64,000 nt of DNA from Carcharhinus longimanus (lineage: Eukaryota). Positions 2,900-60,559 of the stretch are shown piece after piece. A model generated the notes under the pieces. It was not told the origin of the DNA, searched no databases, and worked only from the letters and a program-made list of their open reading frames with translations. Numbering within the stretch: position 1 is the stretch's first letter; every line of letters starts with the position of its first letter. The stretch lies in NCBI GenBank assembly GCA_030264375.1, contig JASCQW010000119.1, positions 9,636,800 to 9,700,799 on the forward strand. The letters run 5' to 3'. A program made the position numbers and the translations under genes.

Positions 2900-3290
2900 C
2901 GGCCCCACTATTAACCAAAGTAAAGGGAGGTTATTGAATACCTTGTCCCATTATATTGAATTGTTGAACAACTTGCCTTACTTCGTGATGTTACTACGAG
3001 TGGTGTGCACTTATGGCACACAAATTCCCACTGCACTCGAAATGACTCACCTTTACGTGCCGGCAATTCTATTCCATCCGAACTTTCACCACGAGGTATA
3101 GCGTGAGTACTCGACTCATATATTCCAAATCAGCGCAATCACGGACATGTAAGTCATAATCATAGGAATTCAAATATATTTTATGTTCCAACCAAGTTTC
3201 AACATAATCGACAAGAGGACAGTAAGGGCTGAATTTAAATACTATTTTGGGACGTTGCGATCCCGTCTGCCCTGGCATGAATACTTGGGA
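2900..3290 (-). pseudogene. Possible very old CR1 APE-endonuclease fragment
   Basis: ORF 3069-3278 contains VETWL...Y.L..RD, resembling the ITETWL...GY..FRKDR motif of LINE endonucleases; heavily decayed. Confidence 0.3.
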
Positions 3291-36163: not shown

Positions 36164-37917
36164 NNNNNNNNNNNNNNNNNNNNNNNNNNNNNNNNNNNNN
36201 NNNNNNNNNNNNNNNNNNNNNNNNNNNNNNNNNNNNNNNNNNNNNNNNNNNNNNNNNNNNNNNGATAAAAAGTAAAGAACAAACTCCGCTGCACCCTGCG
36301 CAAAGAAAAAAACAACACGCTCACACATGCCCCCGACGTCCAAATATGTCGTTCCGAAATGCAACTTACAGAAACTGGGAAAAAGGGCCAACAGGAGAGG
36401 AAACAAAGTTCTACAGGAAAGACTGAAGCCTGAGTTCAGCAGAAAGAAAAGGAATACCCGCCGGAAAGAATAGAAATGAGATCTACTATCCGTATCGGTG
36501 TGACCCCGCAGTAAAGATTCTGATCACTATGAACTTGACTGGCTGGCATCTGAATTACATCTGTGGGAAGACAAGGAGAGAGGAAAAAAAAAGAGAGACG
36601 CTTCCCAAGACACGGGTTGTGTCCAAAAGCAGTCATATTGATTTTAACTGATTGCAGTCGCATTTGCCTTATTTCCTTAAAATCGCCATCAATGCAGCGT
36701 CCCTGTGCTCTCGTGACATGTTTTCCTGCTTCCACAGAAGGGATATGTTTGTTTTTTGCACTCTACAATTGAGCTTGTCAGCCTTACTTTCTAGAATCGT
36801 TCGATATTCATCTGCTGTTTATTCAATGTTGTTATTTTGCTGTCTCAAGGCATATGGTACCGTGTGTTATGTTGCAAGTGTGCTGAAATGGTAGTGGACC
36901 CGCTGCACCTGAAGTAAAATAATTTCGTCGCGTTGAAGACAGAATCTATAAGAGCTAGGTATTAAAACATTTATTCAGCAAAAGTAATCATATCTTTTAT
37001 TTTGCTTAAATACAATCAGTGCTTGGTGTGCAGTGAGCTGGAGGCTTGGACGCAGGGAACACCCATTGTCTTTAATTACATTTCGCATATCATCGTTGAC
37101 AGGTAACTGCTGAATCGACTCTCCTTCCTCTACCTGCCACCTGTTCTTTAAGGCGCGTGTTGTTTTTTCGCCATTGTGCTGGCCTCAGGCTTCTGCCGAC
37201 TCTGGAAGTTTTTGCTTCTTCTCGTGTCTCTCAAACGACTTGAGCTTGGAATTGAACAACCTCTGGATCGCCAGATCGTTTTCACAGAACCGGGTTGGTG
37301 TTACCTGATCAAGAAACAATCTTTTCCAAACTGCCGCTGAATATGCGGGTCTCAAGGAAAGAACAAATGCAGTGCACACTGCACATGTCTGAATAACTGA
37401 GAAACAACGACGTGACAGTGAAGCTTTTGTTGAATCGGCTAGCTTATAATTATTTCTGTGCCTCAGCTTCGAACTTCCTGCGGAGTTAATTAGGCTGCAG
37501 TCACTATATTCGAAAACATTGGCAAACAGTACAATGTGGAATGAACGGCTAATCGCCAAATAGCGGCTGCTCACTGCCTGGCATCCTTATGGTTCATGAC
37601 TCAGGTGATGAAATTGCCGAACAACTGCAATGTTTGGGGGAAAGGCCATATTTCTAGGCACTGTAATTTTATTTCTGAAGAACTAGTATGATGGTTATCA
37701 CTAAGAATCTATTTTTCAGCATGTGATCAAGACGAGAACACTGTAGTTTAGCATACCTCGACCCTTCTTTGCCAAAACATATCCTCCAATGCCTGCGTTT
37801 TTCCAACTCTGGTTATGAAGTCTCAATGATGTGGAAATGCCGGCGTTGGACTGGGGTACTCACAATACGAAGTCTCACAACACCCAGTTAAAAACCAACC
37901 AGTTTATATGATTCTCA

Positions 37918-37957
37918 ACCCACAAGCTTTCGGGGTTTGCCCCTTCGCCAGGTGAGT
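37918..37957 (-). ncRNA. Minimal type I hammerhead motif, core mutated (CUGGCGA)
   Basis: Minus strand reads ACUCAC CUGGCGA A GGGG-CAAA-CCCC GAAA GCUU GUGGGU; stems I and II intact, core has A to G. Confidence 0.65.
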
Positions 37958-38726
37958 GAAGAGTTCTGATCTCAAACTAAGCACGGTTGCACAAAGGAAA
38001 AGCTACGTGTTCCTCACTGGCTGCAAAAGTGAGTGTTTGTCTCTGATTATCTGCGCTTTACCTAATTAAACACTCATCAACAGGAACCATGTTGCAGCAC
38101 TAGCGGGTGTTCTATGGTTCATACATTCCACCATGATAACAACAGGTTATTATGCAGGACATGACTTTAAACCAAAACCCCACATACACCTTTCAGTATC
38201 TTAAGTCTCGGAGTGCTGCCTGACAGGGACAGCCCACAAAGCCCACAAATGGTTCATTGTGTGTCTCTGTGTTGCTGGGAGAATGAACAGACCTCTGTTC
38301 TATGTAATGTTGTTTGCCACAAATTCCTCCTCCCAAGATGGGTTGGTTACCTTTGTGGGCTTTCACGACAGGTCTCAAGGGTCTTGACTGCACCAGTGTT
38401 CCAGCGAGGCACGGGTAAAATTTGGGGCTGCATGCTTCTTCACATTGTGCGCTGTCCCTCTCAGGCAGCAATCCTGAACTTTAGACATTGAAAGGTGTAT
38501 GTGAGGTTGCGGTTGAAAGTGATGCCCTGCGTAATAGCCTGTTGTTATCATGGTGGAGCGTATAAACTATAGCCCGCTCGCTATTGCTGCAACATGTTTC
38601 CTGTTGATGAATATTTAATTAGGTAAAAGACAGATAATCAGAGGCAAAAACTCAGTTTTGCAGCCAGTGAGGAACACGTACATTTTCCTTTCAGCGACCG
38701 TGCTTAGTTTGAGACCAGAACTCTCC

Positions 38727-38766
38727 AATCACCTGATGAAGGGGCAAAACCCGAAAGCTTGTGGGT
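38727..38766 (+). ncRNA. Minimal type I hammerhead motif, weakened stems
   Basis: AAUCAC CUGAUGA A GGGGCAAAACCC GAAA GCUU GUGGGU; core intact, one mismatch in stem II, stem I 4 bp. Confidence 0.7.
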
Positions 38767-41697
38767 TTACTAACAAATAAATTGGTTGGACTTTAACCTG
38801 GTGTTGTGAGGCTTCTTACTATGAAGTTGCAAAGCAAGATGAAACGAAAGAATATTGGGTCTTGTGTGAAGAATTGTTCAAGCCTGAAGAGAGAATGTTC
38901 TTTCGCTTGGACTGTAGCTTCTAGTGCTCGGCTTAAATTTTGAGAAGGAAAACTTACTGTTTTGGCGATAACGGCCTCGAATGTCTTTGTGCAGTGACAA
39001 GAGGGTTTGGAAAAATGATTGAGGCCGGACTATACTGGAAGCTCCCAAGCCTTTCAAGTGTAGGCAATTCAAATACAATCCCTATCACAGATCCATGGCT
39101 TTCAACCAAACACAGTGAAATAAAACCCCACGGTGCCCCCTTAAAAAGAGGTGAGCCCAAGCTTATTCAGCCCCTCCACATGTGCGTACCCAAGCAACAG
39201 ACGTTTGCTTATACGCTCAAGATTTCCTATCACTACCCATCTTGGTGTTTGACTACCCACCGTGTTTGACATCCCCACGCCCCCTTGTTCAATTGCAACC
39301 TCTGCAAATCACACGGCCCTCCAAAACTAATTGAGTCGCTCTGCACCCTTTACAAACTCTCGCCTTTCCTTCGGTATGGGTGCTCCCCCTTTTCATCCAA
39401 TGCGAACACCCGCCCTCTTTTTTTTATACTAATCACAATTACCGATGTCCAACATCCCGAGCAAATGACCGAAGACCAGCTCATACCCCTTCCTCCCACC
39501 CTCCAACCACCCCCCACCCTCCACCCCCCTCCCCTTACACACACACACACACACACGCACATAATATTCGATCCCCATCGCGCTGCCGACTGCCAAAGCA
39601 AGTATGCCTCACCAACAAACCTATTTAATTCGATGACTGACGCGGCTCCATCTTCACCAATATGATTATCAATTTTAAACAATGTTTTAATTCTGTCTGC
39701 TTTCTAACTGCATTCGAAGAAAAATGAAACGACTTTGGCTTACTCACGCCGATTCCATTGGGATCAATGTTCAGCTAAGGAAGCAGATGTTCTGCTTAGA
39801 TCTTATCCGCCTCGGATTCATTAATAGCAGCATATTAGATTTATTGCTTTGGCTCTACAGAGCGAAGGACAAGGTACTTTATTTGTTAAAATGCGCCACT
39901 GTTGCATCTGTTCTGCTGGTATCGGTGCTTTCGCCTCCAGTACAACACCTCGTCCGCAGTTCCACCCGCATCTACTATACCAGGACATATCTTTCTTAAT
40001 TTGTCAGTCTGCACTGGCGTTCTTTTCCTTAACGCCACTTTTGCTCTTTGCTCTATATTCCGAATTAAGGACCCCGCTAAGTTTCCTTTCCCTCCCCTCG
40101 CTACTAGTAGGTAACTCTCTGCCGGTTACTTTTCTCCCCAGTATCGTCCTCTCCAACTGCACGCTGAACTTCGATTCCACGCCCACTGTATCACCCCGTG
40201 CCAACGCAGTGTTTATTGTTTCTTGGCAGCCAGGCCTTAGGCGAAGAACTTGATGTAAATTTAGTCTGGCTCAGAACTCTCGAGCCAAACTCATTAGGCG
40301 TTTCACTGTTGACATGTCTTCCATTATGAGAATAGGAGAGGGACACGTATTGTCATTGTGGAATACCTCGAGCGATGCTCGGATTTCGAGGTAAAAAGAC
40401 ATGGATTGTCGGGATGCAATTTTATCTACGCAGATTCAGTTATGCGCGAATAATAGGCAGAGAATGCGCTCTCCTCTTAATAAAACATATTTCCTTTTCG
40501 TATTCATCAATGTCCATGGCCTGGTGGAAGCAAATTAGTGCATGATTTGTACAGTTTTAACACCTCCCAAATTTTGAATCTTTCAGTGTTGATGAGAACC
40601 TGTAATGCAAAAATTGCATTGCTTATTCATTCTTCATAGACATTTCAATATTTCACCAAAATATAAAACTTTCTCTGATCTTATCGAATGCAATATTATT
40701 GGCACGTTTGATATGAAGACGTCCGATTTTGCTTGTGTGCACTTCCATGATCAAACTTCAGATTCAACATACTCATCTTTTTCTTTTTTTGTTGTTGGAC
40801 GTCAGAACCGTATGTTGCAGAATGCTTTCTAATAAACATTGAAAAGACCCGGATGAAAAACCTTCATTGTGCAGAGCGGCGTTTCCTCCTTCTTGCAATT
40901 ATCAAGGTTAAATTTATGTTCTGAACAGGACAGACAGGCATAATTTTATTCCACTTTGCCAAATCTGTCAGCAGAGGTTTTTTTTTTCGAAACCGGCTTT
41001 CCGAAAATATATTGTCCAATCAATTGTATCGCGACGTCCAATCAAACGTTAACAGCATTAATCAGAAATATTGTCGGCCCATACATTCGTCTTAGATGGA
41101 TGGAATTTGCAATTGCGTAAGCATATTAACGCAGGAAGGGAATAGAGAACACATGCATTTTCTGCAAAAAAAAAGAAACACATTTAAATAACAAGCAAAT
41201 CAAAGGTGGGGATTTTATGTCACGGAATGGTCAGTAAAGAAATGAGTCATTGTTTAAGAAGTAATTTTCCCAACAAAAGAGTATTTGTCCAATCATAAAC
41301 GCTGCAAATCTCAATTGCCTTTATGTTAAGACATTTTGAGAGGTTACATTGAAATTCAGAGGATTTTTGAAGTGCACAGACTACAACAAATGTTAACCTG
41401 CAGTGCTCCCTCAACTCACGTAACAAAATATTTTAAAATACTTTCACAGCGACTGTCATTCATGAAGTCCCATTTATATAAAAAAGGTAGTTTTTGTTTG
41501 TTTTATTATTCCATCACCAAGGTTGTGTTAGTTGACGACGCAGTGGCTGGGTTTATCATTAATCTTTTGTTTTCAAAATGCATCTAAAATTTTAATTCCA
41601 TTGGCAGTGCAATTGGTTCAAAAATCCATGAAAGTGTGCATCCATTGCCTGCGCCGCTTTGACAGCTCATTATGAAGAATCGTTAATAATAGTACTT

Positions 41698-43100: not shown

Positions 43101-43704
43101 ATTGCGTTGTATTCACTTTATTTTCTACAATTTCTTGTGTTACGCTGAATTTGAAGAGTGACTGATCAAGGCGCTTCCACGAGATAGATTAGTACTCCTT
43201 TCACCATTATTTCAACGACCGAAAATTAAATCGAAAGAACGCAGTGGGGCCAAATTTCGGACCCCAAAATCAAGTGTGTCTAATCTGTAACATGCAAAAG
43301 GTTTCCAGTCCCCGTTGTCGTTTAACTGGCCTTGAAAACCAGCACGAGTAAGTCAGTGAGAGCAGGTGCAATGTTACCTTTCTACCACGTTCCGGTTCAG
43401 ATAACTGGTCACTTCAGTCTTCCACAGATCGCAGTAATCAACAAAGAATCAAACCGCTAGTTATTCCACTGTTTCCGTCACTGATATTGCAAAAAAAAAT
43501 TTAATCAGCATTGTTCTTAAGGATTTGTTGTAACTTTGCTTCTTGAAATACTTGTTTGTATAATTCGTAATATTGCCACACCAATTATTCCCAGAAGCTG
43601 TTTCATTTTTTCTTATCGAGACAATCATACTCATTTCAATGGATACTCTATCAGGCAAAATGCTAACCGCTACATCATACTTACCATAACTCGGAAGGAT
43701 ATGA

Positions 43705-43858
43705 TGTGGAGGCGCCAGCGTTGGACTGGAGTAGGCACAATAAACTTTCGGAGAGTTGTTCGTTCCATCAACCTGATCAAGGACCAGCGCTCTGAAAGAT
43801 GTTTTTTTTTCAAACGGACCTGTTGGATTTTACCCGGATATTTTGAGACATTTTAGCA
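43705..43858 (-). mobile_element. Miniature Penelope-derived remnant with decayed hammerhead
   Basis: Same tail (GATGTGGAGGCGCCAGCGTTGGACTGG) followed by an inverted arm with CCTGATCAAGGACCAGCGCTCTGAAAG...CCTGTTGGATTTTACCCGG; TSD GGAAGGATATGAT (43693-43705) / GGAAAGATATGAT (43859-43871). Confidence 0.7.
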
Positions 43859-57460: not shown

Positions 57461-59478
57461 AAACTGTATTTTAGAAGTTTTTTTTTGTTAAACCTGATCA
57501 GACATATCTCTCTTATATTATTTTTGTTTTGGCTCCAGCAAGATTAGATGACAACAAAGTCCCGCCTCGACATAAGCAGCAGCAGCGCCAAATAAACATG
57601 ANNNNNNNNNNTTGGGCATATTCACGCCACACTCAATGCAAATTGTATTCGTGTGAACAGTATTTCTCCGCAATTGACCACATAATTTCACGATTTATTT
57701 GCATTCTTGGGGCATTACGGAGTAATTATCAATGCCAAAAGCTGGGGCGCCGCTAGAAATGAATCGAAGCAGCGTTAAGTTGTCATTTGCTCTGGCGTTA
57801 CAGCTTGCTAACCCGGAAAACTTCTACCGCTTCAACCGCTCAAAATGCAATTGATTGCTCCTAAATTTGGAGTGATGAGATGAAATACGAAAGATTACCC
57901 GCTCTCTCTTCCAGAAACCAGGTATCTGCAAATTTCAAGTGCACAAACGCATAAAGAAGAAACATAAATTAAACACAATTGAAAACCACTTCAAACATAT
58001 GAAAACACAATTGTTTATTTTTGTCCTTCTCTTTGAATTAATACATTTCTTCGTTTCAGGTAAGAATATACCCTTCAAAGGAAATGTGTCAGGTTATTTT
58101 TTATTAAAATTATGTGGAACAGAAAAGCCGGTTTGTACTAAATGCGTTACATTTTAAAATATAGAGACAAAAATGTGAGTTTTAATTGTTCCAACGTTAT
58201 TTTGGACGCTTATTTGTTGCGCATGTATTAATGTGTGTGTGTTTGTGTGGATGTTTTACAAATATATATTGTGACGCCCTACCTTTGTTTATTATCTTCG
58301 AGACATCCAAAACGTCACGATCATCTGGATTCATGAAATAATGCATTCTTTTCAATTGAAGCAGTAACTATTCATGAGTAATCATCAGTAATTTTACATC
58401 TAATAGAGACTGCGGCAGTGGGGGAGCCATTTTTAGTTTGCAGTCAGTAGAGACTTGAATCCTATTGCACGTGGCCACCCTGGTTGCTGCTTGCCTTTTG
58501 TTTTCAGCCAACACACTTACATTGCTAGAGCAAGCACGGCGCTTTAACTTTATTGATGCCTTCCTTCTTGGCTAGATTTGGAACTCCAATCATTCAGACA
58601 ACTGATTCACCGCACCGAACCTGGCCTTGCATTCTCAGTATGTGTATTGCTGATTCAATTTATTGGTGGCCTATTGGGGTTCTGACAGAATTCAGTACTT
58701 GAGTATATAGGGGTTACAATACAGCTGAACGTAAATGTTGTATAATATCCGTCTTCCCTCGAAAAAGACGGATGTTCTAATTGCTTGTTATAGGCGATTT
58801 TCTCAAAGCTCTTGGACAACAAGTAGCACAGTTTGCAAACAATTCGATTTTGTACATGGTGAATGCAGATTAGAATAGATGATATATAATCATCAGTTTG
58901 AAAGTGTAACTTACCACAGAATGCCCTGTTCTCCGAAGATTACCTCCTGCCCTATCCTGAGCAGAATTCCACCGCTACAAACTGCCAGCATCGTTCCATT
59001 CTGACGTATGTACCCAACAAGTTAAAGTCGCTTGGACTTCAGTAGAATTACACTCCTTTAATATTAATATTTGTCAAATATTTAATTGACACCAATTACA
59101 CTGAAACCGACCATATTTCTTAAATTCAGTTTTTCTCTCTTCCTTTGCCTAACGGGTCTGTCGCCCTGTATAGGCGAGTGACTTTGCCGTAACCCAAGCT
59201 CAATGTCAGTGATGAGTTTATTGCTGAATAAATGCCAGTTCACAATAACGCACACAGTCCACCGTTTCTGAGATGACTAACAGTGGATCAAATGGTTACG
59301 TTGACCTCAATTAATCGTTTACGCTGCACAAATGATGTCCCCACTTTTGCCTACAATACATATTACAATGTCGTGCACATTAAACGCATCACTGTTTCGT
59401 GGCTGCACTCAATGATGTTGTCACAGTAAAAAGTCTGACAACACCAGGTATTAGTCCAACCGATTTATTTGACAATAG

Positions 59479-59518
59479 ACTCACAAGCTTTCGGGGTTAG
59501 CCCCTTCGTCAGGTGAAT
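59479..59518 (-). ncRNA. Minimal type I hammerhead ribozyme motif (intact)
   Basis: Exact reverse complement of the motif at 59726-59765. Confidence 0.8.
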
Positions 59519-59725
59519 GGAGAGTTCTGGCCTCAGACGGAGCATATAAAGCACAGACAGTTTAGAGATTACTGATTAGAATGCGAATCCTTACACCTAA
59601 CCTGCTGTTCAAGACCNNNNNNNNNNNNNNNNNNNNNNNNNNNNNNNNNNNNNNNNNNNNNNNNNNNNNNNNNNNNNNNNNNNNNNNNNNNNNNNNNNNN
59701 NNNNNNNNNNNNNNNNGAACTCTCC

Positions 59726-59765
59726 ATTCACCTGACGAAGGGGCTAACCCCGAAAGCTTGTGAGT
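59726..59765 (+). ncRNA. Minimal type I hammerhead ribozyme motif (intact)
   Basis: AUUCAC CUGACGA A GGGG-CUAA-CCCC GAAA GCU U GUGAGU: 6-bp stem I, 4-bp stem II, palindromic AAGCUU in place of helix III, NUH triplet CUU. Confidence 0.8.
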
Positions 59766-60559
59766 CTATTATCAAATAAATCGGTTGGACTAATACCTGG
59801 TGTTGTCAGACTTTTTACTGTTTTTACGCCAGTCCAACGCCGGCATACCCACTCAATGATGTTGCCATGGTTGTGAATATTCAGTGATCGATCACTCCAA
59901 TCTCCGCTGCATTTTTTTAGATACGTTGCTTTTATTACCAGGTCATTTATAGTTAATTAAATGCAACGTTTCAAATAATATACCGCAAAATAGATGTCAC
60001 AAAACATCCACTTTATATTTCTTCTCATTTCTCGTCCAGCTGAATGTTTCTTATAAGGTGTCTAATATTAAATGAATACATTTACATTAAAACAGGGAAT
60101 GATTCTGACAATGTTCTATTTATTCAGACCCACGTTTTCTTTGTTAGCGAGGGGTAAAGTAAGATTGGAATTCCCGATACCGAACAATTAATACACATGC
60201 TCACGTCAACCTATTGCAGATTAGCAATATTATACTTCGGCTGCACTCGAACTTGTTATGTTTTCGTGAATGTTGGATGCAAAGAACATGTTCAAATTGT
60301 ATGTATCCCATTGCATTTCCAAATTGCATACTTTAATTGCAGACAGTTCATTAGTTGCAGGTGAAACAAAATATTTTGTGCACTCACTCTACTAAAAAAA
60401 AGTGCTGCTTCGATCAAAAGGCCTTGATATTGGGAAATCTTCGTTTTATGAAACTTTGTGGTTGTAGATCCAGATTGTCTATTTGGGAATGGTTTGGAAA
60501 AGGCTTGCTGTTTTTTCTTTACTATTAAACAGGTGTCCAACCTTAGATATAGCTGCAGG

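Follow-up and report, generated by a model that had tools for sequence, protein, structure and literature searches.

What kind of event leaves a gap-free palindrome of about one kilobase with a Penelope end at each side and no reverse transcriptase (RT) open reading frame (ORF) between them? Such a unit occupies positions 37814–38832 of the DNA analysed here, a 64,000-nt stretch of Carcharhinus longimanus contig JASCQW010000119.1 (contig C119 of the 2.68-Gb genome), hereafter the window. A preliminary description, made from the letters of the locus, had offered two origins, an ordinary 5'-truncated and inverted Penelope insertion or a non-autonomous, retrozyme-like family that amplified as a unit. 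We find instead that Penelope sequence is limited to the outer 111–149 nt of each arm, about 70% of each arm being non-Penelope, and that the spacer, together with the inner 266 nt of each arm, corresponds to a single locus on a different contig (L040 on contig C27) in the form of two pieces, A and B, which lie 4,865 nt apart at that source, at 84–87% identity. The sequence suggests that Penelope captured host RNA in one event, the RNA likely being spliced and of the sense strand, and we put the probability of this reading at about 0.72. The parts of the unit, from left to right, are as follows (pLTR, pseudo-long terminal repeat; a slash marks a boundary).

37814..37826, no strand: left copy of the target-site duplication (TSD), 11 of 13 positions identical to the right copy
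37827..37864, minus strand: Penelope tail of 33–38 nt, present in the left arm only, stopping at the family's long 3' end
37865..37975, minus strand: left pLTR 3' end; its minimal type I hammerhead has the core CTGGCGA from 37951, with G in place of A6, and folds in stems I and II (z -3.1)
37976..38241, minus strand: left copy of host piece B (L040:2874–3142), 5'-truncated, 87% identical to C27; subterminal region of a likely Harbinger-type element, antisense
38242..38253, no strand: junction filler between the two piece-B copies, best read as an AAAG-microhomology jump from L040:3142 to a similar site at 3228–3238
38252..38308, plus strand: host piece A (about L040:8200–8144), single-copy DNA outside the transposon, 84% identical; its source ends at a donor-like AG/GTGA
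38309..38708, plus strand: host piece B (L040:3278–2874), 87% identical to C27; the start of its source follows a pyrimidine tract and AG
38697..38721, plus strand: junction of host and pLTR sequence, which share GT and are alike at 6 of 8 bases; the identical junction is found on the minus strand at 37963–37987
38709..38819, plus strand: right pLTR 3' end with an intact minimal hammerhead core (38733–38760), stopping at the family's short 3' end
38820..38832, no strand: right copy of the TSD, 11 of 13 positions identical to the left copy

The palindrome is a target-site-flanked unit with Penelope ends

Inverted arms of 380 nt each (37860–38239 and 38445–38824) were recovered by a repeat finder and by pairwise alignment, 84% complementary with 60 mismatches and 0 gaps, around a spacer of 205 nt. 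The gap-free palindrome initially described is therefore real, and it is only the proportions that change, from arms of ~365 nt and a spacer of ~215 nt. Among ten other Penelope arm pairs, gaps amounted to 27 per 269 substitutions, which would predict 6 gaps here and a probability of about 0.002 for none, for a feature chosen post hoc. The 13-bp TSD with two mismatches was likewise recovered: it encloses the entire unit, and its 11 identical positions are reached by only 2 of 8,730 control offsets within the window. A nested 12-bp inverted repeat in the spacer region, also seen before, was found again by the repeat finder; it is accounted for by the inner end of the left arm, for which the best read would be a jump, via AAAG, to a similar site 86 nt further on. 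As anticipated, the element contains no RT ORF, and no Penelope body lies between the pLTR ends, so it does not qualify as an autonomous Penelope. We also observed that the left TSD copy (37814–37825) resembles the pLTR's own short end (37866–37877, repeat family D15) at 11 of 12 positions, by chance or through a preference for pLTR-like targets.

Both outer ends were correctly taken for Penelope pLTR ends in a head-to-head layout, each with a hammerhead core, stems I and II, and a palindromic AGCT at the position of stem III. The right core is intact (CTGATGA at 38733 and GAAAGCTT at 38753, plus strand) and the left core mutated (CTGGCGA ... GAAAGCTT on the minus strand, from 37951), in line with the first description. 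Since Rfam gave 0 matches (the whole window at gathering score, and 37700–38950 at E ≤ 10), the hammerhead call depends on the motif together with the left-arm fold; the right-arm monomer gave no hammerhead fold. The layout fits a minimal hammerhead motif that is described in metazoan Penelope-like elements, with a dimer thought necessary, in sections of an earlier report (PMC4209133).

Compared with the column majority of 24 family copies, the left pLTR end differs at 14 of 110 positions and the right at 5 of 110. Among 80 distinct pLTR ends in the examined loci, 38 stop at a long end, 37 at a short end and 5 elsewhere, the long end lying 30–40 nt further on; the left arm has the family's long 3' end and the right arm the short one. 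In L045 and other loci the same pLTR lies 3' of an endonuclease frame, for which there are 16,784 first-look candidates genome-wide (best 150 scored) and which scores against PF01541 with 22.8 bits in L120 (cut-off 22.6) and with E 0.0085 in L125. The frame of L127, which we take to be RT-like, had no Pfam match. The insertion thus shows the features of an endonuclease-bearing (EN+) Penelope-like element: a pLTR with a hammerhead, inverted 5'-truncated copies with a one-sided tail, a TSD, and a pLTR family that carries GIY-YIG.

Approximately 60 nt upstream of the hammerhead (e.g., L045:4640–4715), the pLTR contains a pyrimidine-rich run and two AG dinucleotides ahead of stem I, resembling a 3' splice site, as at the intron end of Drosophila Penelope. 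The host/pLTR junction lies upstream of both AG, so these splice-site-like positions were not used in the chimera.

The interior is host sequence from a single distant locus

When the element was compared with eight natural Penelope copies, 717 of its 959 nt (positions 123–839) remained uncovered. Similarly, in a genome search with the whole element (best 40 of 5,088 candidates scored), matches spanned only the outer ~125–160 nt, except for the element itself and one C27 locus. With host sequence from C27 making up the spacer and the inner arms, this is not an ordinary truncated and inverted Penelope. Ordinary insertions of that type are common here (L045, L087 and L126), and on such a reading the spacer of the present unit would be a decayed endonuclease end, but the 717 nt align to C27 rather than to any of the eight Penelope copies, and the odds of such an origin are close to nil. 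The minus-strand ILGGG frame of the spacer, previously compared to a GIY-YIG C-terminus, turned out to be another frame of a Myb region: the true endonuclease end of the family differs in sequence and reads on the sense strand, and the spacer aligns to a Myb/SANT exon.

Piece A has 2 matches genome-wide, on C27 and in the window itself, and piece B matches C27 at 87%, its next paralogs of at least 100 nt reaching only 68–76% (22 of 22 candidates scored). Orthologs of the C27 locus in organisms B and C, ~3–5% from organism A, are continuous through the junction site and have no pLTR. Among 18 other outward-facing Penelope pairs, a sample chosen by Penelope similarity and hence biased, none had foreign sequence inside both arms; in two, it was confined to the space between them. 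Non-Penelope stretches of this kind, at L090:707–1481 and L101:2463–2577 (element positions 97–211), separate the arms of palindromes other than the present one and may represent either later insertions or local patches.

No host gene was identified at the window or in ~200 kb around C27, and 42 scanned frames yielded no informative host-gene family. A minus-strand open frame at 37188–37304 of the window follows an AG and resembles a last coding exon; no homolog was found for it, and the whole frame gave a sub-threshold Pfam match.

The source of piece B is itself likely a Harbinger-type relic, judging from its sequence relatives. Piece B is antisense to a decayed Myb/SANT exon and aligns with the terminal region of related elements. 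A profile for Myb/SANT, constructed from 20 PF13873 loci in the same genome, scored the aligned relatives L043 (5e-11), L042 (3e-10) and L044 (3e-4); neither the window nor L040 (E 1) scored with it, and a direct Pfam scan for Myb was negative in all 13 frames. Across 21 related loci, a Myb match was present in 14 and a convergent DDE_Tnp_4-type transposase in 7. No transposase was detected in the C27 copy by tblastn, hidden Markov model or nhmmer searches, nor in L042, L043 or L044, and neither a far end nor a 3-bp duplication was found for the C27 copy. The alignments of L040, L042 and L043 all begin at the GGTGGGAT motif, and L170 has such a motif at both ends.

PIF/Harbinger elements have a two-gene layout, according to sections of PMC9179366. 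The likeness here lies in the alignment of piece B with the Myb/SANT exon and terminal region of a family in which relatives have a DDE_Tnp_4 transposase in convergent orientation, whereas the window holds only an antisense passenger fragment that starts ~23 nt inside the terminus. The old Myb-bearing family (L040, L042, L043, L169, L170 and L171) is 65–75% alike over 3–4 kb. Its expected transposase region is not scored by profiles that find the transposase in seven more distant relatives, which may reflect either heavy decay or a different second gene. DDE_Tnp_4 had 5,655 first-look candidates in this genome (best 150 scored); the same sections of PMC9179366 give Harbinger as undetected in elephant shark and call for a check of other cartilaginous fish.

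The segment missing between the two pieces looks like an intron

On the minus strand of C27, which corresponds to the pLTR sense strand in the chimera, piece A ends at AAG/GTGAAT and piece B is preceded by a pyrimidine-rich run and TAG/G. The 4,865 nt absent from the window thus start with GT and end with AG in the source, and their loss is precise within 1 nt. Across 6.3 kb, the donor is one of 6 AG/GTRA sites (among 380 GT), and the acceptor is one of 20 pyrimidine-rich sites (among 490 AG). Under a random-breakpoint null the splice-site criteria have a probability of 3.5e-5. Since the junction is also an AGGT microhomology, we evaluated a null of 4-nt microhomology pairs as well, in which 19 of 90,438 pairs satisfied both the donor and the acceptor criteria (2e-4). 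The criteria were set after the junction was seen, and both probabilities are therefore orders of magnitude.

Because the skipped DNA runs collinear with L169 and L170 as part of the ancestral transposon body, it was lost in the window rather than gained on C27. The joint from L040 3276/3241 to 8175 is present in DNA contigs of organism A (X1) and of organism B (X2 and X4, one sample). Based on these sequence signals, the missing segment looks like an intron. Of the hallmarks of a processed retrocopy, the GT–AG loss relative to the source is present and a LINE-type (long interspersed nuclear element) poly(A) tail is absent, both copies ending in pLTR ends. A spliced alignment with near-free gaps fragmented piece A and was set aside.

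Could the same junction have formed without splicing, if the template was unspliced RNA or host DNA and the copying jumped at the AGGT microhomology, in the manner of templated repair patches? The 4-nt microhomology at the junction and the similar jump at the inner end of the left arm would both suit such a route. Against it, a strong donor and a strong acceptor coincide this rarely among microhomology pairs in the region, the signals lie on the pLTR sense strand, and the source is on another contig. In addition, both arms share the host piece and a single junction, so that this piece already belonged to the template when the arms were made. Overall, we consider an origin by such a jump quite unlikely.

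Capture of a spliced RNA also raises the question of how piece B was joined to the pLTR. For a second splice, from piece B to a pLTR further downstream, the candidate donor matches the consensus poorly, and the one same-strand pLTR found in that direction, ~62 kb away, is only partly readable. A solo pLTR of another subfamily is located inside the skipped segment (L040:4269–4456), on the same strand as the inferred transcript. It was rejected as the source of the chimera's end, being of a different subfamily, tailless and in the wrong order.

The chimera is a single-copy insertion

A 25-nt pattern across the host/pLTR junction, searched with ≤2 mismatches, had 2 matches genome-wide, both in this element, and its reversed-pattern control had 0. 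All six inner-region candidates were scored, and at the junction none of them showed a pLTR. The two hammerheads occupy opposite strands and do not form a tandem, so that no transcript carries both in sense. With the junction confined to this element and the hammerheads so arranged, the unit is not a replicating family or a retrozyme. A non-autonomous family, or a fold-back retrozyme, that amplified as a unit would be in keeping with a chimeric template that existed and was mobilised at least once, and the N runs frequent at Penelope loci of this assembly could conceal further copies; given the junction search, we nonetheless regard this earlier proposal as highly improbable. Non-LTR retrozymes are tandem arrays with a hammerhead in each unit, as set out in parts of two reports (bioRxiv 10.64898/2026.07.22.740005; PMC4209133). 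The present unit is similarly non-coding and has a type I hammerhead derived from a pLTR, but it has two opposite-strand motifs, one with a changed core, in one copy and no tandem arrangement.

A model for Penelope-mediated capture of a spliced host RNA

In the preferred reading, a Penelope RT acting in trans would have copied a spliced host RNA that carried a pLTR end. The transcript would have begun in unique DNA beyond the old Harbinger-type copy, been spliced over most of that copy, and run antisense through its Myb end. It would then have gained the last ~150 nt of a pLTR. The simplest route would be a lost allele or sister copy that held a 5'-truncated Penelope at the site (5' transduction), which would fit both the microhomology junction and the few derived changes common to both arms. 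An RT template switch at the GT microhomology would be less simple, because the same switch would be needed twice. The enzyme would subsequently have made cuts 13 nt apart in the two target strands and used each of them for priming. The right arm would have started from the inner site, without a tail, and extended for ~570 nt across the splice junction, and the left arm would have started from the outer site, with the tail, and extended for ~430 nt. Finally, the two truncated cDNA ends would have been joined by microhomology.

The two arms are informative about these last steps. With a tail on the left only and a right copy reaching further 5', neither arm can simply have been copied from the other, except if the resolution of the insertion generates the tail, as suggested in one published paper. 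The long left and short right ends match the expectation from the two internal RT start sites of an anole Poseidon protein, which cleaves and extends both strands in vitro and starts at two internal sites bounding the tail (PMC11167929). Extended to Penelope-like elements at large, the combined proposal would be that Penelope RT takes spliced host RNA of the sense strand as its template, with both strands of the target primed on one such molecule from two internal start sites. These elements would then be unrecognised makers of processed retrocopies, and their intron retention would not be due to an antisense or obligately unspliced template. We advance this combined proposal tentatively, at somewhat less than even odds.

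Of 264 columns shared by the two arms and C27, 211 were invariant, 22 left-private, 17 right-private, 13 C27-private, and 1 differed in all three. All 13 C27 changes were transitions, and transversions made up 19 of the 39 arm-private changes. Some changes common to both arms look derived, at 3125 and 3049 (by paralog outgroups), with 3002 and 3007 ambiguous as CpG sites.

Several observations weigh against capture of a spliced RNA from C27 by Penelope. There is one event only, and splicing at C27 is inferred from DNA. The join is a 4-nt AGGT microhomology, at which the window has one substitution and a 1-nt gap, and the acceptor score is only moderate (2.75 against a cut-off of 4.5 set for this analysis, with frequency-based scoring). 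At C27, a pLTR is missing from the junction both in this assembly and in the contigs of organisms B and C, so that transduction would require an allele not seen here. The derived-looking shared changes make it improbable that the C27 allele surviving today served as the template, and there may have been an intermediate copy. Lastly, the model does not explain why the arms hold more private changes (22 and 17) than C27 (13), nor why transversions exceed those of ten other Penelope arm pairs (29 of 60 vs 84 of 269, p 0.016).

An intermediate copy is the core of the main rival explanation, in which a LINE (CR1, L2 or L1) made a processed copy of C27, a Penelope end inserted into it later, and Penelope then transduced the copy. 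If so, the intron loss would be uninformative on the Penelope template. The few derived changes common to both arms suggest a template already outside the C27 lineage, as this scheme would have it, and LINE fragments, which we assign presumptively to CR1, L2 and L1, are abundant in the examined loci. The assembly contains no such intermediate, however, piece A having its 2 matches and piece B no other close copy (22 candidates), and two extra events and one loss would be needed. We thus view a LINE intermediate as unlikely, and direct capture by Penelope remains our preferred reading.

Comparison with known mobile systems

The closest architectural parallel is offered by inverted pLTR insertions of endonuclease-bearing Penelope-like elements, described in parts of PMC3846280 and PMC8557442 as head-to-head copies with a one-sided tail. 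The insertion in the window shares with these the head-to-head 5'-truncated copies, the 30–40-bp tail on one side, the TSD and the pLTR hammerhead. It differs in that only 111–149 nt per arm are Penelope, the rest being host sequence duplicated in both arms.

For the mobilisation of host sequence, the relevant precedent is Pen3a_Av of Adineta vaga, where an NRPS (non-ribosomal peptide synthetase) gene was mobilised in trans by pLTRs, with all introns kept and pLTRs being sufficient (PMC3846280, in part). In the same portion of the text, the authors proposed an antisense template and did not exclude an unspliced sense template. In both cases pLTRs carry unrelated host sequence in trans within a target duplication. 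The NRPS gene is intron-complete between two direct pLTRs, whereas here a GT–AG segment is missing and the host piece lies 5' of the pLTR in both inverted arms. A different enzyme system provides a parallel for the RNA itself: in SVA_F1 (MAST2), the SVA-CKS1B chimera and SVA 5' transductions, spliced host RNA was joined to a retroelement by read-through, splicing or template switch (sections of PMC12593883). Here too, spliced host RNA would have been joined to a retroelement end and moved with it. The SVA cases involve L1 enzymes and poly(A) tails, and some founded families, while the unit in the window has a pLTR end, is palindromic and is single-copy.

In listings of the open-access literature, we found no report of intron loss or spliced capture in a Penelope passenger, which is not proof of absence. 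A passenger lacking a GT–AG segment on the pLTR sense strand constitutes a genomic record of template polarity and processing, and one unique junction in both arms combined with different standard ends constrains the formation of head-to-head copies to one template and two priming events. The locus bears in this way on an open mechanistic question, within the limits of one old event without sign of function. For animals in which copies number in the tens of thousands, it also points to an inexpensive genome-wide screen for retrocopies made by Penelope.

Age and predicted hairpin of the insertion

The insertion is older than the divergence of organisms A and B; in organism B, the left arm has a 4-nt deletion of its own. 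Insertion features were not seen in the contigs of organism C, which cannot show absence. A read-through transcript would form the long double-stranded RNA hairpin foreseen in the preliminary description, with a predicted 320 of 380 Watson–Crick pairs and ~-597 kcal/mol. The associated suggestion of an ADAR substrate was not borne out: A>G accounts for 6 of 39 arm-private changes, without an ADAR signature, and 13 G-U vs 18 A-C pairs (plus strand) indicate no wobble bias, so that nothing points to editing or to selection on the hairpin. The longest perfect duplex run is 25 bp, so conversion tracts are not indicated. Nothing suggests that the element was copied further or has a function, and the insertion is apparently an old, dead single event.

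Other Penelope stubs in the window

A second head-to-head insertion, from a sister pLTR subfamily, was detected at 59408–59865 of the window, with an identical 13-nt TSD and its tail on the right. Its arms are 99% alike over 105 nt, with an N run in the middle; this is an ordinary stub, in which the near-identity beside the gap may partly be an assembly effect. Finally, positions 43701–43742 resemble the element's tail region over 42 nt (83%) and are probably another Penelope stub.

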